Assembly (NCBI GenBank): GCA_964444755.1 | Contig: CAYUIF010000001.1 | Span: forward strand, 238,402-302,401 | Source: an uncultured Alphaproteobacteria bacterium | Lineage (GTDB): Bacteria > Electryoneota > RPQS01 | Direction of reading: 5' to 3' | Length of the DNA: 64,000 bases | Shown: piece by piece, positions 12,225 through 63,935 of the stretch | Layout: each line of letters begins with the position of its first letter | How positions within the stretch are numbered: position 1 is the stretch's first letter | Made by a program: the position numbers and the translations under genes | Notes under the pieces: generated by a model | Told to the model about the DNA's origin: nothing | What the model saw: the letters and a program-made list of their open reading frames with translations, nothing else | Database searches by the model: none

Positions 12225-12660
12225 TTCACTTTCCGCTTGCGTGGTTAACACTCCAATATATGAAATTGAATGAAAGTCGCACGGTATTACCGTACTTAAA
12301 ACGAGAAATCGTAAAGGAGGCATGATATTGTACTAAATAGTCCATTAATGGGTCATGACTGTGCAGTTTCTAACACACTTCCAGACTTCTTCACTATTCA
12401 TATGTTAATCTGACAATTCCGAGATTATTTTTGGGGAATGCCATTCTTCTCAAATTACAAATATTTTAAACTTTTCATATTGAAGATATTGCTTCACCAT
12501 ATAAAGTCCTTATCTTTTTATTAGGTGTAAAGGAACAGGTTGGATTGATATTGTTCTAAATTTCACAAATAGAGTGCTGGTGTTCGTATTCTCAGGCATG
12601 CGTCCTCTCTGCATTGCGTATGCGAATACCGCGTATGTTCCTGACCAGGAGGAGAGATCA

Positions 12661-15600
12661 ATGAAACAATTCATGAGAGGGTTTTGTGGGGCGCTCTTGA
12701 CGATAATCATCGTCGGAGCGTCTTCGGTTTTTGCACAGTGTAACGCACATTTGCTTGCGGCACTCGATGAAAACAATCCCCTGTACGCCGGTCAACGGTT
12801 CGATGTTTCGGTCTGGACCGGCAGTCCGTACTGCCCGGCCAGTGGTCAGATCACGATTCGAACCGAACCGCCCGGTTCGGCGCTCATTGCGGGTAATCCG
12901 TTCTGGGTGGACAGTTTCTTCGATGTGTTTACTGAAGTCGAAACCGTGAAACCGCCGATCACACCGATCGTGCCGCCGGGCACCCCGTTTCAGATCATCA
13001 CCGAAGTGACCTTCGACGATCCGGTGTATCCGGCCTTGTGGTATGAAGAGATGGTGCAGGTTACTCCAATGAACCGTTTGGAGATCATTCATCCGCTGCC
13101 GTGCACCAGTAACGTACCCCCGGATTTGTTCTTGGGGTCGGGCAGTTGCTTCACGGTTTGTCATGGAGTGTACACGGTAGCATTGATCGGCGGTCCGATC
13201 AATTGTGAGCCGATTATTCACGTGACTCCCGGTTGCACAATGCCGCCGTGCGGACCGCAGCCGTGTATGCCGGGTTCGCCGGATTCCTACCGCTATGAGG
13301 TCTATCAATATGGCGGTCAATGGTACCTTGAGTTCGAGTATTCCAATCCCCTTGTGGAACCGGTTTGCTACTGCGTCAACTATGTGGGCAATTTGCCGCA
13401 TGCCGGCGAAACCTATGTATTAGGCGGATGGGAGAACGCGCGCCAGGATATGAATGTCTCGGTGTGGACCAACAACTTGATGGATCCCATCAGCGGGACA
13501 ATCGAGATCTTTTCCTATCCCGCCGGAGCCCAGTTTGAAGGTGGCGGTGGGGGCGGTGGTGGATATGTCGAATCCTTCTTCGATGTCTTCATGGAGCCGT
13601 GGACGGCCGATCCGCCGGTCGGTCCCGGTATCTTTACTCCCGGTCAGCAGTTCCAACTCATTGGCTACATCCACTATGATCCCCCCGGACTGAGCTATCC
13701 GCCGCAATGGGTAGTAGAGGATGTGGTTGTCACGCCCAATGGCGGATTACAACTGGTCAATCCGGGTTGTACCGGTCCGGTGATTATCCCGCCCCGGATT
13801 ACTCCGGGAGTCCCGGCTTGTCTGAATGTCTGTCACGATATCTATTACATTCCGCTGGATTGCGAGGCATCGTCTACGCCCGAAGTGCAAATCTTCTCCG
13901 GCTGTGATCTGACCACGCCCTGTGCCAGTACGTTCCCCTGCACGCCGGGCGCCATGACTGATTTCCGCTATGATGTTTATCGGGTGGGCGGAACGTGGAT
14001 TTTGGAATTCGAATACTCCAACGAGCAGATTCAACCGGTTTGCTATTGTGTGGATGTTTCGTGCCCGTCCACGCCTCGTCCCGTGGCCTATGGTTTAGGC
14101 GCGCTCAGCGAATGGCATCAAACCTTTGATGTTTCCGTGTGGGGGAGCAGTCCGCGAGTTCCCCTGAATGGAACAATCCACTATCGCTCCGACCCGCCGG
14201 GAGCCGCTTTAGACTGGCCGGTGGATAGTTTCTTCGATGTGTTCCTGGAACCGTTTACCTCGAAGGTTCCGGTCATGCCGGGCATCTTCATGCCCGGTGA
14301 GACGTTCCATCTGATTGCCGAGATTGATTTCTTTGGTCCCGGCAGCGATCCCTTCGATGGAATTATTTACGATGAGTGCGTGGTGGTTACTCCCACCGGA
14401 CAATTGGCGCTATGGGATCCCATTACCCCCTGCGGCGGTGACTACACGCCCGGCTCGATGAGTCCCGGACAATCCGAATGTTTCCGGGTTTGTCACCGGG
14501 TTTACGAAATTGTTTTGAATTATCTGCCCGGCGGCGGTCGTCCGGTGATCAGTGTGACGCCCGGCTGCCAAGGTCCGCCGTTCGATAATTGCGTGATGGA
14601 AGCTTGCGTTCCCGGCGGTCCTAACGACTTTGTCTATGATGTTTATCACAACGGAGTGGATTGGATTCTGCGTTTCGAGTATTCCAATCCTTATGTCGAA
14701 CCGGTCTGTTACTGCGTGACCTATGAAGGCAATGTGCCATTCGATTGTGAAACCCGCGAACTGGCCGCTCTCGATGAGATAGATTCGTTCTTCGATGTGT
14801 CACTCCGCACCTTCAGCCCCAGCGGTCAAACCTGTCCCGCTTCGGGAATGATTACTCTCTATTCTTATCCGGAGGGTGCGTATATCGGTCCGTACATCGA
14901 TTCCTTCTTCGATGTGTTCACCGAATGGTACACCGTAAAGGCGCCGGTCGGTCCGGGTACCTTTGGACCGGGTGAAGCCTTCCAGCTCATCGCCTATATT
15001 GATTACACCGAACCCGCCTATCCCGATCAATGGCTGACCGAGGAAGTGATGGTGAATTCTGCGGGTACGGGTCTCGTGATCAATGACACCGGTGGTGAAT
15101 GCACGGGCGATATCGTTCCGCCGGCCATGAACTTGGGGATGTCGGCCTGCTTCAAGGTCTGTCATCGCATCTACCATATTCCCATCATTGATGCGACTGA
15201 TCCCGCCAATCCGCCAACGGTCATCGTTACTCCCGGCTGTTTCGGTGAACCGCAGGATCATTGCCTGCCCGACCCGGAATGCACGCCCGGTCATCCCGAC
15301 TACTATCGTTACGATCTCATTTGGATGGGAGACCATTGGGAACTGGAGTTCGAATACTCCAACGAGAATGTCGAACCCGTCTGTTACTGTGTGACGGTCG
15401 AAGGAACCTCCCAACCCTGTGAGACGCACGCCTTGGTCGCGCTGGACAGCGACAATCAGTTGTTGAAGGTGAGCTTGATGTCGCGTGATCCGGGCGGGAC
15501 ACTGCCCTGCGAAGTTAGTGGAACGGTAAGGCTGCAATCGGTTCCATTCGGACTGTATTTCCAGACTCCAACTTGGCACTTCTTCGGAGTCGGTGAAGAA

Positions 15601-17004
15601 TGGGTTGCAGAAGCCACGCCGGTGGCGCGGGATGCGGGTGTTCCGGATAGCTTCTTCGATGTCTTCGTGGAAATTGATTTTGATGATCCCGCTCAACCGG
15701 ATATGATCGAAACCGAAAGTGTGATGGTTGATCCGGTTTCCGGCGGCTTGGTCATTAACGACGTGGGCGGCCAATGCCCGCCCGGCGCGATCTATGTTCC
15801 GGATACGTTGCACTACGGACAACCCGAATGCTTCAAGGTCTGTCACGATATCTATTACGTGTCGCTGGATATCCCCGGACCGCAAGTCATCCCGGTGGTT
15901 ATGGTGACGCCCGGCTGTGATCCTTCCGCCACCAATTGCAGCGATCCGGCCTGCACCCCCGGCGGCCCCTTCGACTATCGCTACGATGTGTTCAAAGTCG
16001 GCGGCTCGTGGATTCTCGAATTTGAATATTCCAACGAGGATATCGAACCGGTTTGTTACTGCGTTGAAGTCTCCGCGATCAATCCGGTTCCCTTCGAAGC
16101 GTATATGCTGGGAACGTTGAACGAAGTGGATCAGACCTTCGATATCACCTTATGGACCTCCCCCGGTGCGCCCCTCGCCGACGGCAGCTTGATCGTATAT
16201 GCCGATCCGATTTCCGCCAGTGTTATTCCGTTTACCGGAGTGGGAGCGGATTACGTGACGTGGCATGTGCCGGTCAGCACCGGTATGCTGCTGCCCGGAC
16301 AGGATTTTGAGCTGATCGCCCGCGTGCAATTCAACGATCCGGTCTTCGGCAGATGGGAGTATCACGAGACCGTGATGATTGATCCCACCGGCATCGTTAT
16401 CCCCTGGGATCCCATCACACCGTGCATCGGTGATCATGTTCCGGCGGTGATGGACGGCGGCACGTCCCGCTGCTTCATCGTCTGCCACAAGGTCTACGAT
16501 GTTCTGCTCAATATCTCGCCGCTGGTGACGCAGCCGTTGATTTCGGTCACCCCCGGCTGTTTCGGCGCGCCGTTGGATAGCTGCCCCGTAGTGGATTGCC
16601 GGCCCGGCGGTCCGCTGGATTACTGCTACCGCTTCTACTTCGATGGAATCTATTGGCATCTCCTCTTCGAGTATTCCAATATGTACCGTCAGCCCGTGTG
16701 CTACTGCGTCACGATTCTTTCACCGCCGCCGCCGTGCGATCCGGTGCCTGACCTGGTGATTCTCTGGCCGAATGTGGATACCGGGGCTCCGCTGCAGATT
16801 ACCTTCACCTGCCCGCAGGATGCGGAATACCTGATCTACAGCACCACCGATCCGAACAATCACGGCGATCCGCCCGGTCCGCTGTGGTCGCTGGATCACA
16901 CCGTCCTCGGTTTGGCCGGTCAGCAGATTACCTGGGTTCCGGTTCATGCCGATAATGCCTACTACCGCAATTATGTCGTGAAGGCGCGCTGCGGTCCGCA
17001 TTAA
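12661..17004 (+). CDS. Giant secreted cysteine-rich protein built from six tandem ~225-aa repeats (novel repeat family with a CX3CH motif)
   Basis: GGAGGAG RBS, then ATG at 12661. Signal peptide MKQFMRGFCGALLTIIIVGASSVFAQC. Six units each contain DSFFDVF, C-x3-CH (CFTVCH, CLNVCH, CFRVCH, CFKVCH twice, CFIVCH), VTPGC, C.PG.P.D.YRYDVY..G..W.LEFEYSN and EPVCYCV. There is a poly-Gly linker (GGGGGGGG) and no T9SS C-terminal domain. Confidence 0.85.
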   Translation: MKQFMRGFCGALLTIIIVGASSVFAQCNAHLLAALDENNPLYAGQRFDVSVWTGSPYCPASGQITIRTEPPGSALIAGNPFWVDSFFDVFTEVETVKPPITPIVPPGTPFQIITEVTFDDPVYPALWYEEMVQVTPMNRLEIIHPLPCTSNVPPDLFLGSGSCFTVCHGVYTVALIGGPINCEPIIHVTPGCTMPPCGPQPCMPGSPDSYRYEVYQYGGQWYLEFEYSNPLVEPVCYCVNYVGNLPHAGETYVLGGWENARQDMNVSVWTNNLMDPISGTIEIFSYPAGAQFEGGGGGGGGYVESFFDVFMEPWTADPPVGPGIFTPGQQFQLIGYIHYDPPGLSYPPQWVVEDVVVTPNGGLQLVNPGCTGPVIIPPRITPGVPACLNVCHDIYYIPLDCEASSTPEVQIFSGCDLTTPCASTFPCTPGAMTDFRYDVYRVGGTWILEFEYSNEQIQPVCYCVDVSCPSTPRPVAYGLGALSEWHQTFDVSVWGSSPRVPLNGTIHYRSDPPGAALDWPVDSFFDVFLEPFTSKVPVMPGIFMPGETFHLIAEIDFFGPGSDPFDGIIYDECVVVTPTGQLALWDPITPCGGDYTPGSMSPGQSECFRVCHRVYEIVLNYLPGGGRPVISVTPGCQGPPFDNCVMEACVPGGPNDFVYDVYHNGVDWILRFEYSNPYVEPVCYCVTYEGNVPFDCETRELAALDEIDSFFDVSLRTFSPSGQTCPASGMITLYSYPEGAYIGPYIDSFFDVFTEWYTVKAPVGPGTFGPGEAFQLIAYIDYTEPAYPDQWLTEEVMVNSAGTGLVINDTGGECTGDIVPPAMNLGMSACFKVCHRIYHIPIIDATDPANPPTVIVTPGCFGEPQDHCLPDPECTPGHPDYYRYDLIWMGDHWELEFEYSNENVEPVCYCVTVEGTSQPCETHALVALDSDNQLLKVSLMSRDPGGTLPCEVSGTVRLQSVPFGLYFQTPTWHFFGVGEEWVAEATPVARDAGVPDSFFDVFVEIDFDDPAQPDMIETESVMVDPVSGGLVINDVGGQCPPGAIYVPDTLHYGQPECFKVCHDIYYVSLDIPGPQVIPVVMVTPGCDPSATNCSDPACTPGGPFDYRYDVFKVGGSWILEFEYSNEDIEPVCYCVEVSAINPVPFEAYMLGTLNEVDQTFDITLWTSPGAPLADGSLIVYADPISASVIPFTGVGADYVTWHVPVSTGMLLPGQDFELIARVQFNDPVFGRWEYHETVMIDPTGIVIPWDPITPCIGDHVPAVMDGGTSRCFIVCHKVYDVLLNISPLVTQPLISVTPGCFGAPLDSCPVVDCRPGGPLDYCYRFYFDGIYWHLLFEYSNMYRQPVCYCVTILSPPPPCDPVPDLVILWPNVDTGAPLQITFTCPQDAEYLIYSTTDPNNHGDPPGPLWSLDHTVLGLAGQQITWVPVHADNAYYRNYVVKARCGPH
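12780..16740 (+). repeat. Six intragenic tandem repeat units (~660-680 nt each) inside the giant gene
   Basis: EFEYSN codons recur at about 13331, 14011, 14673, 15342, 16021 and 16670. Protein units share roughly 35-50% identity. Confidence 0.8.
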
Positions 17005-17030
17005 TCATCCTCAACGAACCTGAAACCATC

Positions 17031-17059
17031 GGCGGGACGCGATCATTCGCGTCCCGCCG
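17031..17059 (+). terminator. Terminator hairpin after the giant gene
   Basis: ggcgggacgcga-tcat-tcgcgtcccgcc (13-bp stem), then ttcttataaa. Confidence 0.6.
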
Positions 17060-17128: not shown

Positions 17129-18151
17129 TTATCGAATCGCAATCGCGCCGGTTTCCACCGGATAAGTCGGTGTGAGATTCGTCCACACATTCGCGCCCAG
17201 AATTGCCGGATCATCGGTGATGGCGTTCACGCCCATCCGCATCGAATAAGCGTCATAACCCAGCGCGTTGAGATAAGCGTCCATCTGCATGGAGGTTTGA
17301 CCCGTGAAACAGTACACAACCACCGGACGATCGGTGGGAATGTACTTCAGATTCTCGGTAAGACCCAGCGATCCGGGCTGAAAGCGATAGGAACCGGGAA
17401 TATGTCCCGCATTGTAGTTGGCTTCCGGCCAGTAGCACAAGAGGAACCAGTCGTTGCTGGCGTCGCCGTCGTTCAGGTTGGTATAAACGTCCGCCGCGCT
17501 CTTCATCTTCCAGTTTACCGGGGAAGCCGTGAGCTGCTGGGAAATGCGGCTGACGAACATATCAATCGCGCTGCCGCTGGCGCTCGGATTCGGGAACGCG
17601 TATTCGGTGGTCAGCGGATGATTGGCTGTTTCCAACGTCTGTCCGCCGCGGGTCAGGGTGTACCAGCCGCCGCCCGCGCCGGTCTGGGCTGTATCGCTGG
17701 TCCATGAACAGAAGCCCCACTTGAGATTGTAGGCGTTGAGACCGACCAGGTTCAAGTAACTGGTGGCAAAACTGGCGGTTTGGCCCGTATAGCAGTAAAC
17801 CACGATCTTCTTATCCGTCGGCAGATCCGCGCGATAGTTCACTAAGTCTGCGGCATCCCAGTGATGCGCGCCGGGAATGTGACCGCGCACCGTATCATCC
17901 GCCAGCGAGCGAATGCTGATGATATAGGGTTGAGTTGCATCACCGTCGTTCATTTCCGTCCATAACACATCCGCGGTGATATTCTTGGTTGAACCGAGAA
18001 TACTGTCGCCCCAGGCTGCCATCGTTTGAAACGCAGTAGTAGCTGGCGGATTGTTGTTGTCGCTGCTGTCGTCATCATCGGAACAACCGATGAATACCGT
18101 TAAACTGGCCATGAGAATCATGGGGACCAGCCATTTCGCAAATGCCTTCAT
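17129..18151 (-). CDS. Lipoprotein with two rhodanese-like domains
   Basis: Lipobox LTVFIGC. Two rhodanese active-site-type loops, VVYCYTGQTASF and VVYCFTGQTSMQ, each preceded by HIPGA/HIPGS. Confidence 0.85.
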   Translation of the reverse strand: MKAFAKWLVPMILMASLTVFIGCSDDDDSSDNNNPPATTAFQTMAAWGDSILGSTKNITADVLWTEMNDGDATQPYIISIRSLADDTVRGHIPGAHHWDAADLVNYRADLPTDKKIVVYCYTGQTASFATSYLNLVGLNAYNLKWGFCSWTSDTAQTGAGGGWYTLTRGGQTLETANHPLTTEYAFPNPSASGSAIDMFVSRISQQLTASPVNWKMKSAADVYTNLNDGDASNDWFLLCYWPEANYNAGHIPGSYRFQPGSLGLTENLKYIPTDRPVVVYCFTGQTSMQMDAYLNALGYDAYSMRMGVNAITDDPAILGANVWTNLTPTYPVETGAIAIR

Positions 18152-18208
18152 GTACCTCTCCTTGAATGGGTGTTGTGTGTTGTTATTCGTGTATCGAATG
18201 ATTTCTAC

Positions 18209-19309
18209 TTACCAGGGCGGCGGTCCGTCGGGAACGATCACTCCCGCATTGGCTTGCCGCTCGTTCGCTGATGATAATTGATCCAAATCCACCTGCCGGA
18301 GGAAGAAACCTTCCGGAGTGTTGGGAGTCAGGTGGCAGGCTGCGTTGCAGCTCTGTCCGCCGCTGGTATCGGTCTGCGCCGTCCAGCGTACGATATTGTG
18401 CGGAGTTGCGTATTTGTACGTCGGCAACGATGCATAATTCGGACTGGCGATCCCCCACGGTGTGTACGTATTCTCGGATACCGGGATATGCCGCAGCACG
18501 ACATATTCGCCGGGGCGCTGATCGGGAATCGGATTCCGTCCGATCTTGAAATCTATCCACGATGGTTGCTGAATGCCGTCGCCCGCATGACACTCCGCGC
18601 AATTCTTGTAGGCTTGCGAGTGGCACACCTGACACTGTAAATCGTCGCCGTGAACGGTGTGATACGAATTGGCCGCCAGCGGACTGTGGCAGTCGCGGCA
18701 GCTCACCGGATCGTCCACGTCATAGCGGGTTGTGTACTCCGTTCCGTCGCCATGAATCTTCTGGCCGCTGTGACAGGCTTTGCAATGCATCGCATTGGGA
18801 ATGTAGTGGACGTCGGCGCGGTATCCGGCGTTTTCGCCGGTATATTCAGGACCGATGCGGCTGCCGTGACAAGCGATGCACTGGTTGGTCATATCCGGAG
18901 TGCGGCGGATGTTATGGCCTTGAATAAACCCTCCGCCCACCGACTTCGGACGGCTGATGTGGCATGATCCGCAGCTCGCATGGCACTTGTTGCATTCGGC
19001 GTTGTACGCCTCATAGGCGTGCGGATCGGAAGTCAAAGCCCGCCCCGTGCGTGCTTCGAAGAGCGTATGATACCCCTTCATGGTCGTATGCAGACTGTGC
19101 GATACGTTATTCGCGATCTCCTGATGGCACATCCCGCACTGGTTGACGGAGATCTCCGACGGATCGGCAATCATTCCGTCGTGCGCTTCTTCCTTCGTGA
19201 GTTGTCCGGCCCGTCCGCCGTGACAGATGCGGCATTCCAGTGCGTGGGCGCTGTTGCGGAACGCTTCATAACCGCTGCCTGTCAGAATTACTTTTTGCCA
19301 TCCCTCCAA
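18209..19309 (-). CDS. Multiheme c-type cytochrome (9 CxxCH + 1 CxxxCH), body segment without its own signal peptide
   Basis: CRICH, CGMCH, CNKCH, CGSCH, CIACH, CKACH, CRDCH, CQVCH, CAECH, CNAACH. Begins at a TTG, 18 nt downstream of and in frame with the 19328-19549 ORF. Confidence 0.8.
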   Translation of the reverse strand: MEGWQKVILTGSGYEAFRNSAHALECRICHGGRAGQLTKEEAHDGMIADPSEISVNQCGMCHQEIANNVSHSLHTTMKGYHTLFEARTGRALTSDPHAYEAYNAECNKCHASCGSCHISRPKSVGGGFIQGHNIRRTPDMTNQCIACHGSRIGPEYTGENAGYRADVHYIPNAMHCKACHSGQKIHGDGTEYTTRYDVDDPVSCRDCHSPLAANSYHTVHGDDLQCQVCHSQAYKNCAECHAGDGIQQPSWIDFKIGRNPIPDQRPGEYVVLRHIPVSENTYTPWGIASPNYASLPTYKYATPHNIVRWTAQTDTSGGQSCNAACHLTPNTPEGFFLRQVDLDQLSSANERQANAGVIVPDGPPPW

Positions 19310-19327
19310 CGGAGAGACTGAGCCGCC

Positions 19328-19549
19328 TCAGCCTTCGCCGCTGTCATCGCCGGAAGAGCCGGTATCCGGCAGCGCAACGGCTTTCAGCATGGTTTCGTTG
19401 GTATGGCAGCCGATGCAATCCGCGGTGTTGGCTTCTCCCGCGGGAGCGGCCGGATTATCCTCATCGCTGCATCCCCAAAAGGCGAAGGCGGCGAAGAGTA
19501 ATCCGATAGCAACCAGTACCCAAAACGTCATGGGTTTCATATCGTGCAA
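19328..19549 (-). CDS. Lipoprotein signal peptide + first heme-binding site (CIGCH); probable N-terminal part of the multiheme cytochrome, cut off by an in-frame TGA
   Basis: MKPMTFWVLVAIGLLFAAFAFWGC lipobox, then CIGCH. The TGA at 19328-19330 is in the same frame as the 366-aa cytochrome ORF. Confidence 0.55.
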   Translation of the reverse strand: MHDMKPMTFWVLVAIGLLFAAFAFWGCSDEDNPAAPAGEANTADCIGCHTNETMLKAVALPDTGSSGDDSGEG

Positions 19550-19727
19550 CCTCGTTTGTCCGAAGATGGATTGTTAATTGGGACTAAATTCACATGCCGG
19601 GGAACAACAATCAAATGAGTATCACATTAAGCCCTGATTCTGCATATATAATTTCATAAATAACAAAGATAAGATTGCAATTCTGGCAGACTCATTATGG
19701 TCGGCTTAGAGAATCTGACTCCCGTGA

Positions 19728-20168
19728 TTACTGTGCTCTCTGGTTCAGTATCTCGATGATCTGCGGAACCTGCGGATCTTCGGGAACCAGCTTCTGATAT
19801 TCCCGGAACAGTTCAATTGCGGTGCGGGCATCACAGTAGGATTCATAAATTCCCAGCACCAACACCCGGTTGGCCGGATCGTCGAAGCTGCGGTGTCCGT
19901 TGCCGATAAACGAAGCCAAATCCGGGCACGGACAATCCTCCGCCTTTGGATCGGTGTCCAGAATGATTGCGGGATTTTCGGTTAGTAGTTCGAAATAGAG
20001 GCGGTAGCCGTCCCGTAAGCGACCGGTTTCGATGTAGGCAATAATCAGTTTCTTGCGAGCCTTCAGATGTTCGGGATGAAGGCGAAGGTATTCTTCCAGG
20101 ATCGGCACCGCCCGCTCATAGCTGTGGGTCAGAAAAAAGTAATTGCCGATCATCTCCGAGATCGCCAT
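19728..20168 (-). CDS. Small TPR-like protein
   Basis: 146 aa from MAISEMIGNYFFLTHSYERAVPILEEYLRLHPEHLKARKKLIIAYIETGRLRDGYRLYFELL. Helical repeat character. Confidence 0.55.
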   Translation of the reverse strand: MAISEMIGNYFFLTHSYERAVPILEEYLRLHPEHLKARKKLIIAYIETGRLRDGYRLYFELLTENPAIILDTDPKAEDCPCPDLASFIGNGHRSFDDPANRVLVLGIYESYCDARTAIELFREYQKLVPEDPQVPQIIEILNQRAQ

Positions 20169-20248
20169 CGGACCTCCATGTCCAGTTGTTAAAAATGTAA
20201 CAAGCAACATTCAGACCATCTTGTAAAAATAATAACTTAACAAAAAAC

Positions 20249-20269
20249 GGTGAAACATAAAGTTTCACC
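20249..20269 (-). terminator. Rho-independent terminator of the sigma-54 activator gene
   Basis: ggtgaaac-ataaa-gtttcacc hairpin, followed on the minus strand by GTTTTTTGTT. Lies in a very AT-rich spacer. Confidence 0.55.
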
Positions 20270-20374
20270 GCCTGAGACATAGTGTCATTAAAACAATTTT
20301 TTCTTATAAAAAACAAAACTATAAATAATTTTTTAACAATTTGTTTCAGTTAACAAAAAATGAAACAGCTGTCA

Positions 20375-21688
20375 CTACTGTTCCATCTTATATTGCTTCA
20401 TCAACCGCCACAAAGTCGTTCGGCTGATTCCTAAAAGTTCGCAGGCTTTTTGTCGGTTCCAGTTAGTATCCCGCAATGCGCGAAGAACTCTCGCCTTTGC
20501 GGTTGATCCGCCCTGGTCATTGATCGAAATCACACTCTGGTTCTCCCTGACTTCAGGAGGCAAATGACCCAGTTGCACAGATCCGCCACGGGCTCGAATC
20601 ATGCTATACTCCAGAGCGTTCTCTAATTGCCGCACATTTCCCGGCCATTGGTAGCGTGCCAAGGCATCGTAACACTCATCGGTGAGCTGCGCTTTCGGGT
20701 AATTATTTTTGTTCTTCAGGCGGTTGAATAGACTCTCAACCAGTAACAATACATCATTTCCTCGTTTGCGCAGCGGCGGCAATTCCATGGGGACGGTTGA
20801 CAGACGGTAAAATAGATCCTCGCGAAACTTTCCCTCGGCGATGAGCTTTCGTAAATCCCGGTTGGTCGCGGCAATCACCCGGACATCCACTTTGATCGTC
20901 CGGCTCCCGCCCACCGGTTCGAACTCCCGCGATTGCAGCACTCGCAGCAGTTTAAGCTGAACGGCCGGAGACGCTTCCCCGATCTCATCTAAAAATATCG
21001 TTCCCCCGTCCGCCGTCTCGAACCGCCCCGCCCGGTCGGTGTAGGCTCCTGTGAATGCTCCCTTTACATGACCGAATAACTCGCTTTCCAGAAGATTTTC
21101 GGCAAAAACGGAGCAATTGACCTTCACATACGCCTTGTTCCGGCGGGGACTGCGGGCGACGATGGCATCCGCCGCCAATTCCTTCCCGGTTCCGCTTTCG
21201 CCCGTGATTAATACCGTGGTCTCCAACCCCGCCACTTGCTCGATCAGCTCGAAAACCTCCAGCACACTGCGATCTCGACCGATCATTCCTTCAAAATGAT
21301 CCTCGGCCGCCAGTTGACTACCCCGTTGCGCGCTATCCACTGGGCGAAACACCATGATTCCGCCGGTGGTCTCGCCGGTTTCATCTTTCAGTTCCGAAGA
21401 ATTGACCAGCACCTGAAGGGTTGCTCCATCCTTGCGGGTAATAGCCATCCGGGTATCCCGGAGTGGTTGGCCAAGTTCCAGGGCGCGAAATAACGGGCAC
21501 TCATCCTCACACCGGTCCGTCTTAAATACGCTCCGGCAGAATAACCCCGTTTCTGCCGACGTTGAGAAGCCCGTCAGGCGTTCGGCGGACGGGTTCATAT
21601 AGGTCAGCTTCCAGTTGCGGTCCACGATATAGACGCCTTCGTGAAGCGCATCCAATAGCGCATGAAGTGCGAAATCAGATAGGTCCAT
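20375..21688 (-). CDS. Sigma-54-dependent transcriptional activator with N-terminal PAS domain (NtrC family)
   Basis: PAS (YIVDRNWKLTYMNPSAERLTG). AAA+ Walker A GESGTGKE. GAFTGA sigma-54 contact motif. ESELFGH. C-terminal Fis-type HTH (ACELLGISRTTLWRLMK). Confidence 0.92.
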   Translation of the reverse strand: MDLSDFALHALLDALHEGVYIVDRNWKLTYMNPSAERLTGFSTSAETGLFCRSVFKTDRCEDECPLFRALELGQPLRDTRMAITRKDGATLQVLVNSSELKDETGETTGGIMVFRPVDSAQRGSQLAAEDHFEGMIGRDRSVLEVFELIEQVAGLETTVLITGESGTGKELAADAIVARSPRRNKAYVKVNCSVFAENLLESELFGHVKGAFTGAYTDRAGRFETADGGTIFLDEIGEASPAVQLKLLRVLQSREFEPVGGSRTIKVDVRVIAATNRDLRKLIAEGKFREDLFYRLSTVPMELPPLRKRGNDVLLLVESLFNRLKNKNNYPKAQLTDECYDALARYQWPGNVRQLENALEYSMIRARGGSVQLGHLPPEVRENQSVISINDQGGSTAKARVLRALRDTNWNRQKACELLGISRTTLWRLMKQYKMEQ

Positions 21689-21891: not shown

Positions 21892-23256
21892 ATGTCCAAG
21901 AAATGGTTTTGGCTTTTATTGATCATCCCCGCCCTGATCTTCTGGGGATGTCCCAAAGACGATGAAGAGGAAAACAACACTCCCCCGGTAGTCGAAGATA
22001 ACGCCAGCGGCAGCGTGACTTCCACCACCTCCGGCACAATTCAAACTCCCGCCGGCGCCCGCATCGTCGTTCCCGTCGGTGCCGTTCCGCAGACCGAAAG
22101 TGGTCAACCCGGTACGATGGTCTTCTCGATTGAGAAGAACAACAACATTCTGGTCACTCCGCCCACCGGTGAATCGGTGGTCTCGGATGTTTATCAGTTC
22201 GGTCCCGAAGGCTTCGTTTTTGCCCGCCCCGTCGAGGTCGCGATTCCCGTTCCCGGTGATACCGATCCCGGCCAGGTCAGCATCTGGCGGAAGAATCCCA
22301 CGACCGGTGTGGCGGAATTCTACGGCTCCGAATACGATCCGGCCACCCGTACGGTGAAAGCCCAAACCTACCAGCTTTCCCCGTGGTTCATCACTAACAA
22401 CAACCGCGTGGATGATGCCTCCGCCTGCATCCGTGTCAGCAACACCAGCCTATCAACCTGGCTGTATGTCTGCATTGAAGAGTACACCCTGGACTTCCCG
22501 GAGCAAGCCACGTGGCTGCCGGAAGGCGATGGGAACGGTTGCCTGTGGGCTCCCATCGGAACCATCGGTTGGGCTCATGAAGGCAACTGGTATGTCCCGC
22601 AGGGTGTTTACAAACTCTGCCTGCAGCGAGAAAACGAGCAACAGGATCGCTACGAACACATTTTTGTCGAGAACGTTCAAGCCACCGCTCCGTGGCACTA
22701 CAATGATCCCCGCTGTGCAAACGTTTCTTCCGGTGATTTCTTCCCCGCCGATACCGGACGTTGCGGCTGCATTCCCACCCCTACTACATCCGTGGGAACC
22801 GGCGACATTCAAGTCACGCTTACGTGGTATAACCAGCAATCCCTCGACCTCGATCTGTGGGTTATGGATCCCGATAGCGAATGGTGCTACTACGGCAACG
22901 GTCAGGCTCCCGGAACAACAACTTCCGGCGGTCAATTGGATCGTGATAATCTCTGCGGAAATTACGTCAACGGTCGTCCCGAGAATATCTATTGGACGCA
23001 AACCCCGCCCAATGGTCAATACGTCGTGGCGGTGGACTGGTTCTCCAGCTGCGGCAATGAGCTGGGTAATCAATCCTACAATGTCCGCACCGTAGTCGGC
23101 GGTACGACCCGCACGTTCAATATGGTGATCGAGCCCTATGCGAATATGCAGGAAGTCACGCGCTTCACGATCAGCGGCAACACAATCAATTTCCTGCCGC
23201 CGCGCAGCGATGTGGACTATTCCAAGCTGCCGCGTCCGAGCAAGACTCAGAACTAA
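21892..23256 (+). CDS. Lipoprotein of unknown function with C-terminal beta-sandwich (PPC/DUF2135-like LDLWVxDP) domain
   Basis: Signal and lipobox MSKKWFWLLLIIPALIFWGC. C-terminal DIQVTLTWYNQQSLDLDLWVMDPDSEW...NGQYVVAVDWF. Confidence 0.65.
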   Translation: MSKKWFWLLLIIPALIFWGCPKDDEEENNTPPVVEDNASGSVTSTTSGTIQTPAGARIVVPVGAVPQTESGQPGTMVFSIEKNNNILVTPPTGESVVSDVYQFGPEGFVFARPVEVAIPVPGDTDPGQVSIWRKNPTTGVAEFYGSEYDPATRTVKAQTYQLSPWFITNNNRVDDASACIRVSNTSLSTWLYVCIEEYTLDFPEQATWLPEGDGNGCLWAPIGTIGWAHEGNWYVPQGVYKLCLQRENEQQDRYEHIFVENVQATAPWHYNDPRCANVSSGDFFPADTGRCGCIPTPTTSVGTGDIQVTLTWYNQQSLDLDLWVMDPDSEWCYYGNGQAPGTTTSGGQLDRDNLCGNYVNGRPENIYWTQTPPNGQYVVAVDWFSSCGNELGNQSYNVRTVVGGTTRTFNMVIEPYANMQEVTRFTISGNTINFLPPRSDVDYSKLPRPSKTQN

Positions 23257-23982: not shown

Positions 23983-24957
23983 CTATTTAAGAAGTACTAC
24001 CGGTTGTGATAGAGTTCTTTTCGGACTCGTAAGTCGCACATAATACATGCCCGACGAAAGTTGACTTCCCTCAATCTGAACTCTATGAAAACCAGAACTC
24101 AACGGACCCTTTGTCAAAGTCTGGACACGCCTGCCCAAAAGATCATAAAGTGCCACATCCATCACCATCGGCGAGGACAACGTGAACGAAATCGTGGCCG
24201 TGCTGTTGAAGGGATTCGGGTAGACCTCGCTTAATGCGAACTCCTCTCCGATGGCCGCGCGAGGCTCGTCGGTCCACGAGGTCGCTTCGAGAGTGATGTC
24301 TATTCCCTCGGGGAAATTCGATTCCTGTACGACGATGGCGGTGGGAGTGCCGCCGCCGTAGACGCCGCGCGGTTCGCCGGGATCCCATGCGAAGTTGCCG
24401 TCGAGATCCATGAAGGCATAAGCATAGAAGGTGGCGAAGCTGTCCACCAGCGCGACGTAATCGCCGTTGCCGGTATTGTTGAAGAGCAGGCTGCCGCCGT
24501 GGGGGAGGTCGAGAAAATCGGGAGTGTAATAGGCGAACAGCAGGGTGGTTCCGGTGCCCGCGCCGCTATAGCTGATGGTTCCCGAAAAGCCGCCTTGATT
24601 GGGCGGATGGAGTTCGATGTTCACGCCGGTGGTATCGGAAATCAACTCGAAGACCTGCGGGATATCGCCGCCGTAGAAACCGCGCGGTTCGTCCAGATCG
24701 GGAGTGATGCTGGTATTCAGATCCTGATAGGCAAACAGCACATAGCCGCCTTCATCCAAACCCGAAAAACCGTAGGTGTTGATGAACGGAATGGCGATGG
24801 TGATGTAGAAGGTATCGAGGGTAGTGGGCACGGCAAACACATAGCGCAGCGGCAAGCCCGTTCCGCCGGTGATAGTGCCGGAGATGGAATAGGCTTGGGC
24901 AGTACCCGCCCATAGAATGAGGCACAACAAACAGATCGCGAATAATCGGCTCTTCAT
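23983..24957 (-). CDS. T9SS (Por) C-terminal sorting-domain secreted protein
   Basis: Signal MKSRLFAICLLCLILWAGTAQA. C-terminal VYPNPFNSTATISFTLSSPMVMDVALYDLLGRRVQTL...GMYYVRL...VVLLK matches the TIGR04183-type domain. Confidence 0.8.
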   Translation of the reverse strand: MKSRLFAICLLCLILWAGTAQAYSISGTITGGTGLPLRYVFAVPTTLDTFYITIAIPFINTYGFSGLDEGGYVLFAYQDLNTSITPDLDEPRGFYGGDIPQVFELISDTTGVNIELHPPNQGGFSGTISYSGAGTGTTLLFAYYTPDFLDLPHGGSLLFNNTGNGDYVALVDSFATFYAYAFMDLDGNFAWDPGEPRGVYGGGTPTAIVVQESNFPEGIDITLEATSWTDEPRAAIGEEFALSEVYPNPFNSTATISFTLSSPMVMDVALYDLLGRRVQTLTKGPLSSGFHRVQIEGSQLSSGMYYVRLTSPKRTLSQPVVLLK

Positions 24958-25139
24958 AAGAACTCCCGTCGGCATAAGTGGCGATGACCCAGTGTACGAA
25001 GATTTCCGCGCATTTTCAAATTCTACTTACGTTACACAATTCATGCCGAAATCCGGCGGTCCGCTCAATAAATTTAAGGCGATAGGTGGAGTGGCATGGA
25101 AATATTTTTTTGCCGAACGAACTACCTAAGAACAGAGAA

Positions 25140-41771: not shown

Positions 41772-44081
41772 ATGAAAACGCTCCTAAGTTTCATTCTTAT
41801 GTGCTGTTTTGTAGGAGCAGCCATCGCAACTTCTGTTTTGGAGTGGTACCGTTTGTTGCCCAGTCTTGGTGAAGCAAGTAGTGTAGTATGTTTGTCCGAT
41901 GGTGGATTTGTGGTTGTTGGAAATGGCGTAATCATGCGATTGACTTCGCGGGGGGACACATTATGGTCTCAATCCTTCAGCAGTCCAAGCGGAGGATGGG
42001 CCGTCAATCATAAAGTCATTTTTGACTCTGATTCAAACTTAGTCGTTGCAGGTGAATGGTATAATGCAGGAATTAGAGCCTTTATTCGTAAGCTTTCATT
42101 ATCAAGCGACCTGATCTGGTGCCATGAATATATTCTTACAGAGTATACGGGTTTCAATGATATTAAGAATACTCCCGGAGGCGGTTTTGTTGCGGTAGGA
42201 AAGTATCTTTATATAAATGGATTCATCGCTCGCTTGGATGAGCAGGGTGACACCCTGTGGACAAGAATTATTCCCAACGAATTCATTCCCAGTGGAGTGA
42301 TTGTATCACCGGATTCTGCCTATCTCATTTCTGGCTATACATCAAATCCGGACTATCCAATTTTTGCCAGATACAGTCTTGAAGGAAATCAAGATTGGAT
42401 CAGGTATTGCGGAGGTATGGGAAGATCAGCCACGATCTTGCTGGAAAATTCTCAATTGCTAATCGGTTTCGGAACAGCAAGTTATTCTGATTACAGTGGA
42501 CAACCGCGATGGTCCTCCATGAGTACGGATAATGGATTAGCCTGCACAGCGGGAGTAGTACCTTCTCCTACCAGCCACATTAGCGATGCCATGCCGATTT
42601 CAAATGGATATCTGTTAGCGGGATGGACTGGTTATAGCACGTATGATCACTTGGGCTATATTCTGAAAGTAGATAGTTTCGATCCATCACGAGTAGTCTG
42701 GACGACCACAATACATACCGGAACATCGTACAATCGTGAATGGTCACAATTTAATGGAATTGCATCAACTCTTGATGGGGGATTTGTTGCCGTTGGACGA
42801 GGTACAGGAGGAACACATCAGGACTGGTTAATTGCGAAATACTGCCCCGAAGATGCTCCAGCTGGCGGATTCACTATTATCCACCCCGGACCACCCGATT
42901 GGGGCTTCTCGCTTGGTTGGTTAGGTGGAGAGTTAGATACAATCGCCTTTACGAATATTAGTGACGGCGCCTATGGCGATGTTACGGGTTCGGCTGCGGC
43001 CGACTGGCATATTCTGAATAATGGAGACGGTAATGACGGGGATTCGATCATCTTCGTTGCATCCCAACCTTTCGGCGGTTGGGAAGTGGATACGTTTTGG
43101 ATCAGGAATATGCAAGACAACCACTGCACGATTTCCTATATTGCGGAATGTCCCAAAGGAATTATTGGTTTGGATAATGGAGGACACGTTGAGATTCTCG
43201 CTGAAGGACTATATCACTCCGGTTTTGCAGTTGTCCGTGATACGGCTGCCGTACGGAAAATCATCTTTTCGCAATTTCCCACTGGTACAACCGGCAGAAT
43301 AACTGGTGTGGCATCGCTGACTTGGGAAATGATGTCAAATGGCGATGGAAACAATGGCGATTCGGTAATCTTCTTTACTGGCGTTCCGCTTTTGACCGGT
43401 TCAGTGGATACCTTTTGGCTTGATAGACCTGAAGGCAGCGGAATCGCAGATTGGTCCATCGGTTGCAACTCCGGAACAGCGCGGGTATTTACGGGCATCG
43501 TAGATTCGGTGCGATTTGCGGGACAGTACTTGGCGAATGGCATTTCTCTTTCGCTTACGACATACAATGAATCATATCTTTCTTGCTTCCGTGTTTTTGG
43601 CAAGCACACAACAAGTGCACCGTGGGTTGAGATTGGCGTTATTCCTGCCACGAATGACTCTGGTCCTAACCACTATTTGCTCAATGGTGGAGTCCGCGGG
43701 ATTGGATTCCAATTCATGGTTATAGCTGAGGATTCATTTGGTGTCCAGCGAGAGTATGATGATCAAGTTCTGATTGTCGGTCAAAATGTGCCGACTGATA
43801 TGAAGAATATATATCTGTCAACTGAGTTTAAACTCTCTTCCTTCCCCAACCCCTTCAACCCATCCACTACCATTTCGTTTTCGCTTCCCAAATCCGCAAT
43901 CACCCGCTTAACGGTCTATGATCTCTTAGGCCGTGAAGTGGCGGTATTGACAGATCATTTGTTAGAAGCGGGCGAACATAATCTGCAATTCGATGGTTCT
44001 GATTTACCCTCCGGTCTCTACTTCGCCCGTCTGCAATCCGGAGATTTCGTTACGACTCAGAAGCTCTTATTGGTGAAATAA
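41772..44081 (+). CDS. T9SS-sorted beta-propeller-repeat protein (769 aa)
   Basis: Signal MKTLLSFILMCCFVGAAIA. Repeated DGGF.V.G / GDTLW blades. C-terminal FPNPFNPSTTISFSLPKSAITRLTVYDLLGREVAVL...LLLVK. Confidence 0.8.
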   Translation: MKTLLSFILMCCFVGAAIATSVLEWYRLLPSLGEASSVVCLSDGGFVVVGNGVIMRLTSRGDTLWSQSFSSPSGGWAVNHKVIFDSDSNLVVAGEWYNAGIRAFIRKLSLSSDLIWCHEYILTEYTGFNDIKNTPGGGFVAVGKYLYINGFIARLDEQGDTLWTRIIPNEFIPSGVIVSPDSAYLISGYTSNPDYPIFARYSLEGNQDWIRYCGGMGRSATILLENSQLLIGFGTASYSDYSGQPRWSSMSTDNGLACTAGVVPSPTSHISDAMPISNGYLLAGWTGYSTYDHLGYILKVDSFDPSRVVWTTTIHTGTSYNREWSQFNGIASTLDGGFVAVGRGTGGTHQDWLIAKYCPEDAPAGGFTIIHPGPPDWGFSLGWLGGELDTIAFTNISDGAYGDVTGSAAADWHILNNGDGNDGDSIIFVASQPFGGWEVDTFWIRNMQDNHCTISYIAECPKGIIGLDNGGHVEILAEGLYHSGFAVVRDTAAVRKIIFSQFPTGTTGRITGVASLTWEMMSNGDGNNGDSVIFFTGVPLLTGSVDTFWLDRPEGSGIADWSIGCNSGTARVFTGIVDSVRFAGQYLANGISLSLTTYNESYLSCFRVFGKHTTSAPWVEIGVIPATNDSGPNHYLLNGGVRGIGFQFMVIAEDSFGVQREYDDQVLIVGQNVPTDMKNIYLSTEFKLSSFPNPFNPSTTISFSLPKSAITRLTVYDLLGREVAVLTDHLLEAGEHNLQFDGSDLPSGLYFARLQSGDFVTTQKLLLVK

Positions 44082-44225
44082 TCCGCCGTGGTCGGTCTCC
44101 CGACCGGCCATGGCCCATCGTCATTATTCTTCAGGAGGTTCTCATGAAATCGGCAACTGTGACCTGTCTCCTGTTCTTATCCGTATCCCTTTCTTTTTCG
44201 CAACCCCCCGATACCCTGTGGATGC
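43840..44225 (+). repeat. Cassette junction: conserved C-terminal-domain coding block + intergenic RBS + conserved signal-peptide coding block
   Basis: The ~240-nt C-terminal-domain coding segment recurs at 45327-45568, 46752-46992 and 48050-48291 (about 80-90% nt identity). The RBS/signal-peptide block (ttcaggaggttct.atgaaatcggcaactgtgacctgtctcctg...) recurs at 45583-45680. Confidence 0.75.
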
Positions 44226-45568
44226 GCACCTATTACGCTGATATGGGAGGCAATGCGAACGCACTGTGTCTCACCCAAGACGGCGGTTATGCTGTAGCCG
44301 GTATCTGCTGCTTTGCTGGCTACCACAACTTCTTCTTTGGTGGTTTTGTTAATAAACTGGATCATTCCGGCCAGACGGAATGGACATGGAGTATTTTAGG
44401 CAGTGCGCTCGCCAACAGCTGCTGGGCGAATGACGTGATTTCGACGGCAGACGGCGGTGTGGTGGCCTGCGGCAGTGGCAACTACTGGGGAGGCGGTCTC
44501 GGCCAAGGTCCGGAAATGTACCTCTGGGTAGTGCGATTAAATGCCCAGGGAGATACCCTATGGTTTTACGAGCAAACGGAAAGTAATACTGATTGGTATG
44601 GCGGCGGTCGGGCGATTGCGACCGCGCCCGACGGATTCCTCATTGCCGGATCATATTTTACGTCGCTGACAAAGCTGGACACCGCTGGGAACCTGCTCTG
44701 GCAGCGCAATTGGGGCATGTCGCTAAAGGATATCACACCGACTCCCGATGGGAATTTCGTGTGTGTCGGATCGTATGATACCAGCGCATCCCGCTGCCTG
44801 ATCGTTAAAGTCACTCCCGACGGCGATACGCTGTGGACGCGCGATTGTAATACGGGATGGGATGAACAGGTGCGTGCGGTGACCACCACCTTTGGCGGCG
44901 GACTGGCCATCTGCGGAACGGGTAACTATCCACCTATCGGCGTTGATACCTTCTTGGGGATCTTGGATAGCAGCGGCAATTATCTGGTACGACGGGCTTA
45001 TGAACACGAGCATTCTTATGCCATAGATCTCTGCCAACTCGCCGATTCGGGATTCATCCTGGTGGGCGGAATTACACCGACCTACCCTAATCCGAGGCAG
45101 ACCTTTGTCGTTCGCACGGCACCGAATGCCGATGCGATGTGGACCAAGCTGTGGGATGAGACTTTTGAAAACTTTGCCAACTCCGTCGTACAGGATACCG
45201 ACAGCGGCTTTGTCTTGGTCGGCAAATGGGGAAATGATTACTGGTATATCTCCAAACTGGAATACGATCTGGTGGATATAGATGAGTCGCCGACCGCTCG
45301 CATTCCCGAGTCGTTTTCCTTGATGGCTTTTCCCAATCCCTTCAATCCGTCTACTACAATTTCCTTTTCGCTTCCGAAAAGCGCTCAAACCCGCTTAACG
45401 GTCTATGATCTCTTAGGCCGCGAAGTGGCGATACTGAGCGACGGAATGCTGGAAGTGGGCGAACACCAAATGCAATTCGATGGTTCAGCCTTGCCTTCCG
45501 GTCTCTACTTCGCTCGCTTGCAATCCGGAGATTTCGTTACGACTCAGAAGCTCTTATTGGTGAAATAA
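44144..45568 (+). CDS. T9SS-sorted beta-propeller-repeat protein (474 aa), paralog
   Basis: Signal MKSATVTCLLFLSVSLSFSQPPDTLW is identical to that of the next gene. Repeated DGGY / GDTLW blades. T9SS C-terminal domain. Confidence 0.8.
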   Translation: MKSATVTCLLFLSVSLSFSQPPDTLWMRTYYADMGGNANALCLTQDGGYAVAGICCFAGYHNFFFGGFVNKLDHSGQTEWTWSILGSALANSCWANDVISTADGGVVACGSGNYWGGGLGQGPEMYLWVVRLNAQGDTLWFYEQTESNTDWYGGGRAIATAPDGFLIAGSYFTSLTKLDTAGNLLWQRNWGMSLKDITPTPDGNFVCVGSYDTSASRCLIVKVTPDGDTLWTRDCNTGWDEQVRAVTTTFGGGLAICGTGNYPPIGVDTFLGILDSSGNYLVRRAYEHEHSYAIDLCQLADSGFILVGGITPTYPNPRQTFVVRTAPNADAMWTKLWDETFENFANSVVQDTDSGFVLVGKWGNDYWYISKLEYDLVDIDESPTARIPESFSLMAFPNPFNPSTTISFSLPKSAQTRLTVYDLLGREVAILSDGMLEVGEHQMQFDGSALPSGLYFARLQSGDFVTTQKLLLVK

Positions 45569-45597
45569 TCCGCCTTTATCGCTCTTCAGGAGGTTCT

Positions 45598-46992
45598 ATG
45601 AAATCGGCAACTGTGACCTGTCTCCTGTTGTTATCCGTATCCCTTTCTTTCTCCCAACCCCCCGATACTCTCTGGACACGGCACTTTTCTCCACTTTGGC
45701 CAGACGCCGGTGGTCTGCGCAGTGTTCATGCGCTGCCCGATGGCGGTTTTATGGCGGTAGGACATTGCTGCTATAATCTGTACCACTTCTTCTATAATGC
45801 TGCATATGTCGGACGGTATGATTCAGAGGGAAATGCCGTCTGGGAGAATCATTATTGGGGAACCAGCGGCTCAACTCTCGGAATTGGAGCAATCGCCTTC
45901 GATGTTTGGCCATTGCCCGAGAGCGGGTGCATTGTGGCGGCGGGGATCGGAGCAGGTTGGCCATGGCTTCCAGCCACAGTCATGCGTGTAAATGAGGGAG
46001 GTACTATTGAATGGGCATTTTCGAGCACTACATATGGCATAACTGAAATGCGCGCGGTCAGTATGACTACTGAAAATGTAGTGGCCGCCGTTGCCAGTGA
46101 TTCAGGAACAGTCTTTCGTTTCAGTCTCGATGGTGATACATTATCGAGGACCGACCTGTATCCTGCCGACCTGTTCGCGACGCTTCCCACACCCGACGGC
46201 GGATTTGTGGTGGCGGGGAGCGATACCTTTCCCATCCGTTATGCGTTCTATCTGGCTAAGTTTGACGCCCACGGCGATACGATGTGGACGCGGCGGCATT
46301 CGGTATCCACCTTGGGCGGCGGCGCGTATGCCCTGTGCCATGCCCCGAATGGCGGATTCATGCTGGCGGGCACGGCGCTCATGCCCGATACCACGCTGCC
46401 GGAATTTGCCGCCGTGGTGATGGTGGATTCCACCGGCCAATTATTGAGCCAGCATATCTATGGAGACATTCCACCCGTAATCGCGGCGGATCGCTGCGCG
46501 GAAGGCGGCTACATCCTGCTCGCCGACCGGCTCCTGCGCATTAACGATGAGGGCGATACCTTGTGGACACGCACCCTGCCCTGCAACGATTGCTTCTACA
46601 GTGTCATCCAAACCGCCGATAGCGGCTATCTCGTGGCCGGGCAGATTACGGTTGATCTAAGACAAAAAGCGTATTTAGCGAAGTACACACGGGAAGGTTT
46701 ACCCGTCACGGATCATCCAGCTGCTCTGCCTGCTGAATTCCGACTGATAGCCTATCCGAATCCGTTTAATCCATTAACCACGATTGCATTTTCGCTTCCT
46801 AAATCCGCACTCACCCGCTTGACGGTCTATGACCTCTTAGGTCGTGAAGTGGCGGTGCTGACGGATCAAATGCTCGAAGCGGGCGAGCATCTTGTTTCGT
46901 TTGACGGCACAGCCCTGCCATCGGGACTATATTTTGCTCGACTGAGAAGCGGCGAGTTTACTGCCACGAGAAAACTTTTGCTTGTAAAATAA
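45598..46992 (+). CDS. T9SS-sorted beta-propeller-repeat protein (464 aa), paralog
   Basis: Same signal peptide. Divergent middle region. C-terminal domain ...AYPNPFNPLTTIAFSLPKSALTRLTVYDLLGREVAVL...LLLVK. Confidence 0.8.
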   Translation: MKSATVTCLLLLSVSLSFSQPPDTLWTRHFSPLWPDAGGLRSVHALPDGGFMAVGHCCYNLYHFFYNAAYVGRYDSEGNAVWENHYWGTSGSTLGIGAIAFDVWPLPESGCIVAAGIGAGWPWLPATVMRVNEGGTIEWAFSSTTYGITEMRAVSMTTENVVAAVASDSGTVFRFSLDGDTLSRTDLYPADLFATLPTPDGGFVVAGSDTFPIRYAFYLAKFDAHGDTMWTRRHSVSTLGGGAYALCHAPNGGFMLAGTALMPDTTLPEFAAVVMVDSTGQLLSQHIYGDIPPVIAADRCAEGGYILLADRLLRINDEGDTLWTRTLPCNDCFYSVIQTADSGYLVAGQITVDLRQKAYLAKYTREGLPVTDHPAALPAEFRLIAYPNPFNPLTTIAFSLPKSALTRLTVYDLLGREVAVLTDQMLEAGEHLVSFDGTALPSGLYFARLRSGEFTATRKLLLVK

Positions 46993-47043
46993 CCATAATT
47001 GAATTACATTCTATGTTGAACTACACCTTTGTCGGGAGGGACA

Positions 47044-63890: not shown

Positions 63891-63935
63891 CGCAGATCCT
63901 GATCGATACATCATAAGACCTCCCGGATCCACCAT

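Follow-up and report, generated by a model that had tools for sequence, protein, structure and literature searches.

A Sec-exported giant protein of six cysteine-rich, predicted beta-sandwich modules represents an undescribed domain family of KSB1/Calditrichota-type bacteria

Giant repetitive secreted proteins made of beta-sandwich domains are already known as a kind, and among the closest described examples are the fibrillar adhesins and other giant surface proteins built of Ig-like, FN3 or Big domains. The protein analysed here, encoded by the plus-strand gene at positions 12661-17004 of a 64,000-nucleotide stretch of contig CAYUIF010000001.1 (the whole stretch is called the window), resembles them in having a signal peptide, a long beta-sandwich array, an acidic composition and a copy number of repeats that varies between relatives. 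Also among the closest known systems are the PPC domain (pre-peptidase C-terminal, PF04151), the clostridial collagen-binding domains, CBM3 and GOLD, and, as exported proteins with the linear motif C-x3-C-H, ImcH and some CymA homologues, in which CX3CH is a documented atypical haem c motif (PMC6295460). The domain family that makes up the window protein is nevertheless new. Unlike the fibrillar adhesins, the protein matches no Pfam stalk domain (Big, FN3, CARDB, PKD, cadherin) and, in Pfam and NCBIfam, no recognised anchor (LPXTG, sorting C-terminal domain, autotransporter barrel) or adhesive tip domain; its repeats are old and positionally distinct where those of fibrillar adhesins are near-identical, and every second domain is a predicted four-disulfide sandwich.

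The product is 1447 amino acids long and comprises a 25-residue signal peptide, six modules of 214-225 residues that fill nearly the whole mature chain, and a 97-residue C-terminal domain (the tail). An earlier note, made from the sequence of the window, had described a giant secreted protein built almost wholly of six copies of one module, and the open reading frame (ORF), the repeats and the signal peptide all bear this out; our confidence in the architecture is high. Three of the landmarks listed in that note occur once in each of the six modules, with a regular period: C-x3-C-H (starting at residues 163, 387, 607, 830, 1057 and 1271), FEYSN (225, 450, 672, 897, 1121 and 1336) and PVCYCV (234, 459, 681, 906, 1130 and 1345). 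The remaining ones are looser, with [DE]SFFDVF and VTPGC each present in five modules and exact DVSVW in only two, the other four reading NVSVW, DVSLR, KVSLM and DITLW. Since the modules of the protein are 30-48% identical to each other and Tandem Repeats Finder detected no tandem repeat in the DNA of the gene, the repetition is old and visible at the protein level only. The composition (isoelectric point 4.08, Lys plus Arg 2.9%, Pro 11.5%, Cys 4.4%) is more extreme than that of the other secreted proteins of the window, and being acidic, poor in Lys and Arg and rich in Pro and Cys it suggests a robust, protease-resistant extracellular protein. A run of eight Gly (residues 294-301), written in mixed GGN codons, occupies a loop in the Ig-like half of module 2, and a run of seven or eight Gly stands at the same module-2 site in seven relatives (P0002, P0007, P0008, P0010, P0011, P0012 and P0014) despite identities of 38-75%.

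Modelled with AlphaFold2 from the module alignment, module 4 is predicted with high confidence (pLDDT 96.1, pTM 0.91) to consist of 14 strands and no helices, arranged as an Ig-like half (about residues 692-798) and a Cys-rich half (about residues 797-918), the latter reaching a pLDDT of 94 when modelled by itself. Structure comparison likens the N-terminal half to Ig-like, MG or transglutaminase-C folds; as modelled, the module is an Ig-like domain followed by a Cys-rich sandwich without a close solved relative. Foldseek returned no match of the model in the PDB at E<=1e-3, PDB sequence-profile searches with the module, its C-terminal half and the tail gave nothing under E 0.3, and scans of the protein against Pfam and NCBIfam gave no match at E<=1. 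The module, which the earlier note had been unable to assign to any family, is thus an undescribed one.

The family is narrowly distributed. A word-indexed search of 5.8 billion proteins yielded 21 relatives, all named 'hypothetical', from Calditrichota, candidate division KSB1 and unclassified metagenome bins; an exhaustive search of 1.84 billion cluster representatives with a hidden Markov model (HMM) built from 56 modules returned 24 proteins only, all from KSB1/Calditrichota-type metagenomes; and a scan of one genome per species across 185,579 species found seven loci, all in metagenome-assembled genomes (MAGs). A profile of the Cys-rich half that included distant copies extended the family little, adding P0036 only in the word-indexed search, and a search with the N-terminal part of P0038 found two proteins of the type IX secretion system (T9SS) only. 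In full-length members the same tail comes after 4, 5, 6 or 7 modules, which answers the question of repeat-number variation raised in the earlier note. Modules at the same position of different proteins are 55-75% identical, as against 30-48% between positions, their order across the family is m1-m2-m3-m4(-m5-m6), and the 7-module protein derives from the duplication of a three-module block; this positional conservation fits a defined multi-domain structure and not a recently expanded repeat. The gene is single-copy in every locus examined, the module HMM having turned up no further copy in the window or any of the loci retrieved. In one long-read MAG (L010, 5809-8762) the homologous gene is spread over two overlapping ORFs with 3 + 2 modules, representing a frameshift or an assembly error.

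The module also occurs outside the giant proteins, in distant relatives that hold a single copy (P0028, P0030, P0035, P0038 and P0039), two C-terminal halves (P0034) or a partial or truncated module (P0040 and P0041). These T9SS type A proteins of uncultured bacteria, matched with E values from 1e-49 to 9e-4 in profile searches, are secreted like the window protein. Either the whole bipartite module or just its Cys-rich half recurs in them, and with it the scaffold of eight Cys, the CX3C motif and the terminal C-x-C, although FEYSN is not kept in P0035, P0038 and P0039. They differ in what follows the one module or two C-terminal halves, namely an FN3-like domain and a canonical Por_Secre_tail C-terminal sorting domain (CTD), whereas in the window protein six modules are followed by another kind of tail and a CTD is missing. 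Por_Secre_tail scores above the Pfam curated cut-off in P0028, P0030, P0034, P0035, P0038 and P0039, while for P0040 and P0041 the CTD follows from Pfam annotation already computed for them and from their name at NCBI, 'T9SS type A sorting domain-containing protein'. Since relatives with the module carry these CTDs, the module is a passenger domain of secreted or surface proteins.

The cysteines were compared in an alignment of all 109 family modules, using module-4 numbering, in which C123, C139, C143, C169, C177, C183, C217 and C219 correspond to residues 814, 830, 834, 860, 868, 874, 908 and 910 of the window protein and His144 to residue 835. Each of the eight is kept in 102-109 of the 109 modules, which gives six besides the CX3C pair, in agreement with the five or six further conserved Cys of the earlier note. 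That note had also called CX3CH invariant, and this holds for 104 modules and, as regards the His, for all 109, but not for the second Cys: in five modules, all of them first modules (P0014, P0016, P0017, P0019 and P0021), C143, the neighbour of the His, has given way to I, V or A, so that the loss of CX3CH in orthologues, which that note had listed among refuting observations, is seen in part. The same five lack the upstream C123 and retain C139 and His144; two more apparent losses of C123 are alignment shifts, the Cys being visible in the sequences. In the tree of first modules the two residues were lost together at least twice independently, once in the clade of P0014, P0017, P0019 and P0021, where shared ancestry confounds the count so that the effective events number two and not five, and once in P0016, whose sister P0015 retains both. 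As C143 is lost only with C123, and in at least two independent events, a disulfide between them is indicated, albeit indirectly, by covariation. Other Cys are gained and lost in pairs too: the optional columns 36 and 78 are both filled in 46 modules, both empty in 61 and singly filled in 2; columns 81 and 170 are both filled in 13 and both empty in 96; C183 and C217 are jointly missing from module 2 of P0019; and the tails of P0013 and P0018 lack both their first and their last Cys. Judged from the sequences, such paired gain and loss is the pattern of probable disulfide partners, and CX3CH is most likely part of a disulfide framework and not a haem site. Of the 21 members, 13 have an odd number of Cys in the mature protein and 8, including the window copy (62 Cys), an even one; parity, tried as a test of full disulfide pairing, proved uninformative.

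The Sec signal peptide, MKQFMRGFCGALLTIIIVGASSVFA followed by QC, was assigned by inspection, and the A/S-Q-C junction is kept in 21 of 21 full-length members. The earlier note had seen no T9SS CTD in spite of a T9SS-rich genome, and both parts of this statement are upheld: the tail has no match to the Pfam and NCBIfam CTD models (PF18962 and TIGR04183) at E<=1 and scores at most 0.2 bits against an HMM built from the CTDs of the relatives, whereas the same HMM matches eight or nine other ORFs of the window at E 1e-18 to 1e-29, and the strong CTDs in several of these confirm that the genome is T9SS-rich. Strong type A CTDs end four consecutive ORFs at 41772-48291 (plus strand) and the minus-strand ORFs 23983-24975, 51589-53967 and 62751-63935. 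Every full-length member, however many modules it has, ends in the tail, which measures 94-110 residues. A weak fn3 match (Pfam, E 0.011) was obtained for 2 of 18 tails and no Pfam match for that of the window; a kinship with the FN3-like domain of the single-module relatives was tried as well and dropped, hhalign giving a probability of 0.9% and thus no demonstrated relationship. Most members end, after the last Cys, in a short basic patch (..PTRR, ..PSR, ..GTRR or ..PTKK) despite about 3% Lys plus Arg; the window copy ends in ..KARCGPH (nucleotides 16990-17001), without such a patch.

The CX3CH motif had led the earlier note to propose haem c attachment, a reading in which each module would covalently bind one haem c with the His as axial ligand and the whole would be a six-haem beta-sandwich cytochrome for extracellular electron transfer. 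The frequency of the motif in the six window modules and across the family, its use in ImcH and some CymA homologues, the Sec export that haem attachment requires and the presence of c-type cytochromes in the genome, including a neighbour (18209-19309, minus strand) that has nine CXXCH and, as the earlier note reported, a CNAACH, are all in keeping with this idea, but the details of conservation are not. Five modules have I, V or A beside a retained His, with the first Cys also kept, and the Cys that they lack, C143, disappears together with C123; the known natural single-Cys haem c sites retain the Cys adjacent to the His. P0036 and the two copies of P0034 in turn keep CX3C and the remaining Cys scaffold but have T, W or S in place of the His. 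In the model, going by secondary structure only, the first Cys would lie within an extended strand and the C-H at a hairpin turn, instead of in the helical turn that, in c-type cytochromes, offers both thiols to one edge of the haem. No Pfam cytochrome family matched even at E<=1, no list of structure matches for the module contained a haem protein, so that neither sequence nor fold relates it to a known cytochrome family, and the cytochrome neighbour is not conserved across homologous loci. Compared with the ImcH- and CymA-type proteins, then, the predicted module is all-beta where they have a helical haem pocket, its second Cys covaries with a distant one, its His is dispensable in relatives and homology to any cytochrome family is missing. 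We therefore consider haem c attachment highly improbable, and our confidence in the non-haem conclusion is high. A metal site is a less remote idea, though still an unlikely one: C139, H144, C177 and C219, invariant in 109 of 109 modules where the covarying C123, C143, C183 and C217 are slightly less conserved, could bind Zn, Cu or Fe, for example, and form an extracellular or periplasmic metal-binding or sequestering array. The marked acidity of the protein would suit this, as would the position of the gene in three divergent members, directly downstream of a resistance-nodulation-division (RND) efflux operon with CzcB/CusB-like adaptor matches, with an ArsR-type regulator as well in L001 and L002. 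However, neither the window nor its clade has this neighbourhood, the Pfam and NCBIfam scans matched no known metal-site motif, three distant domain copies with all their Cys intact have another residue in place of the His, and four disulfides are the simplest solution for eight cysteines, an even number, that covary in pairs. Taken more broadly, the proposal that the Cys-rich half binds a redox or metal cofactor through Cys139 and His144 (with Cys177 and Cys219), either as haem c held in a beta hairpin, for which there is no precedent, or as a metal centre of Cys and His, appears very unlikely; if true, KSB1/Calditrichota would have in this protein an array of six sites, found nowhere else, for electron transfer or metal handling outside the cell.

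The best explanation, and in our view a reasonably probable one, is instead a Sec-exported, disulfide-stapled, acidic beads-on-a-string protein with a binding or scaffold role at the surface or outside the cell. The signal peptide would be cut between VFA and QC and the mature chain would fold oxidatively outside the cytoplasm into 13 beta-sandwich domains in a row, two from each of the six modules and a single C-terminal one, possibly in the shape of an extended rod. The first half of each module would be a 7-strand Ig-like sandwich and the second a Cys-rich sandwich of an uncatalogued kind, whose eight conserved Cys most likely make four disulfides, the second Cys of CX3CH pairing with the Cys about 20 residues upstream and the first with another Cys of the scaffold. 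The invariant His, placed by the model at a beta-hairpin turn, may have a structural or ligand-contact role. Its most likely function in KSB1/Calditrichota is binding or scaffolding at the cell surface or outside the cell, in the manner of an adhesin or fibril and with resistance to proteases; our confidence in this function is moderate to low. Several observations weigh against it. No anchor or outer-membrane export signal was identified in the protein, as there is no T9SS CTD and the tail matches nothing in Pfam, NCBIfam or the PDB profiles, so it could be periplasmic; no ligand-binding site was identified; no neighbour is conserved family-wide across the loci examined to give a functional clue; the disulfide map beyond the putative C123-C143 bond would follow from few events, and the odd Cys totals mean that not every Cys is paired; and an invariance of 109 of 109 for His144 is stronger than is usual for a purely structural residue. 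Compatible with this disulfide-stapled scaffold, and concerning export only, is the suggestion that the tail is a new sorting or anchoring signal, either a third type of T9SS CTD or a partner-binding domain docking onto a ZU5-like lipoprotein, which would explain how a giant protein without a CTD reaches the surface. The tail is like the CTDs in size, position and a possibly beta-rich nature, and the short basic end patch found in most tails stands out in a protein otherwise poor in Lys and Arg; in three loci the next gene downstream encodes the lipoprotein, and in the window its orthologue (43% identical) is found 4.8 kb downstream. Given that the tail has no similarity to type A CTDs or to any NCBIfam or Pfam CTD model and that members of the divergent clade lack the lipoprotein as a neighbour, we regard this suggestion as doubtful.

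The coordinates of the gene, its parts and its surroundings are collected in Table 1. Although the longest open frame begins at GTG 12574, ATG 12661 is preferred as the likely start, because AGGAGGAG sits six bases 5' of it, because the typical signal peptide opens there and because all homologues begin at the equivalent position with a similar Shine-Dalgarno sequence. The region upstream (GC about 0.41, against 0.55-0.60 in the flanks) is shared with a minus-strand amidohydrolase gene, arranged divergently. What the earlier note had singled out as an unusually long AT-rich leader turned out to be an ordinary divergent promoter region, with no Rfam family matched and, in the aligned upstream regions of seven loci, nothing kept apart from the Shine-Dalgarno sequence; the strong terminator that it had placed after the gene is a good candidate. 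The gene stands alone between opposite-strand genes and is monocistronic.

Table 1. Features of the giant-protein gene and its surroundings; positions refer to the window unless a locus handle is given.
Feature	Position	Strand	Basis or remark
ORF of the six-module repeat protein	12661-17004	+	intact frame, stop codon 17002-17004
Sec signal peptide, aa 1-25 (..SSVFA before the cut), Gln-Cys at the mature N-terminus	12661-12735	+	translation; conserved junction
Module 1, aa 26-239, Ig-like half plus Cys-rich half; CFTVCH at 13147-13164	12736-13377	+	
Module 2, aa 240-464; 8-Gly loop at 13540-13563; CLNVCH at 13819-13836	13378-14052	+	
Module 3, aa 465-686; CFRVCH at 14479-14496	14053-14718	+	
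Module 4, aa 687-911 (modelled module); CFKVCH at 15148-15165	14719-15393	+	
Module 5, aa 912-1135; CFKVCH at 15829-15846	15394-16065	+	
Module 6, aa 1136-1350; CFIVCH at 16471-16488	16066-16710	+	
Conserved C-terminal domain, aa 1351-1447, plus stop codon; possibly FN3-/Ig-like	16711-17004	+	
AT-rich divergent intergenic/promoter region, with Shine-Dalgarno sequence AGGAGGAG at 12647-12654	12324-12660 (337 bp)	+	sequence, GC
Intrinsic-terminator-like hairpin, 13-bp stem, 11 G-C pairs	17030-17059	+	sequence
Tandem-rhodanese gene, neighbour of the cytochrome gene	17129-18151	-	
Multihaem cytochrome ORF, nine CXXCH and one CNAACH	18209-19309	-	weak Pfam Cytochrome_C7 and MtrC/MtrF matches
Sigma-54 activator gene, neighbour of the cytochrome gene	20375-21688	-	
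ZU5-like lipoprotein	21892-23256	+	lipobox ..LIFWGC; Pfam ZU5 E 2.9e-7
RND-operon neighbourhoods of the divergent clade	L001 2978-9581; L015 1785-6022; L016 1096-5327		

The neighbours of the gene differ between clades, and an operon-based inference of function was dropped for this reason. In the window gene's own clade CMD/amidohydrolase genes flank it upstream. The ZU5-like lipoprotein gene follows the giant-protein gene directly in L003, L014 and the contig of P0012, the window orthologue being compared above with the L003 gene at 13222-14856; the equivalent genes of L014 (6445-8094, ZU5 E 1.9e-5) and of the P0012 contig encode 545-549 residues. In the window the two genes are parted by an inserted 4.7-kb minus-strand block (17129-21688), and it is possible that the lipoprotein is a functional partner or anchor of the giant protein. 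The cytochrome ORF of this block, read from its listed TTG, does not begin with an obvious signal peptide, so its real start may lie elsewhere. In the divergent clade (P0014, P0013 and P0018) the gene follows, on the same strand, the RND efflux operon, which consists of a membrane fusion protein with the CzcB/CusB-like matches and ACR_tran; L001 and L002 also hold OEP, a YgaP-like transmembrane protein and a P-II-like protein beside the ArsR-type regulator. Between the amidohydrolase and giant-protein genes of L003 (6982-9597) and L004 (4571-7444) lies a protein of 871 or 957 residues, respectively, without a Pfam or module-HMM match.

The present evidence reveals no new mechanism, and it carries a caution, since a perfectly repeated CX3CH need not mean a haem site. 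What it does define is a bipartite family, an Ig-like domain joined to a predicted four-disulfide sandwich, with a high-confidence predicted fold and no counterpart in Pfam, NCBIfam or the PDB, confined to a few uncultured bacteria of the poorly known sediment phyla KSB1/Calditrichota, where it occurs both as giant proteins of 4-7 modules and as single-copy T9SS cargo. This poses a concrete question, namely how, if at all, a 1,400-residue protein without a CTD leaves the periplasm of a T9SS-rich bacterium, and it adds one building block to the catalogue of bacterial surface-protein domains.

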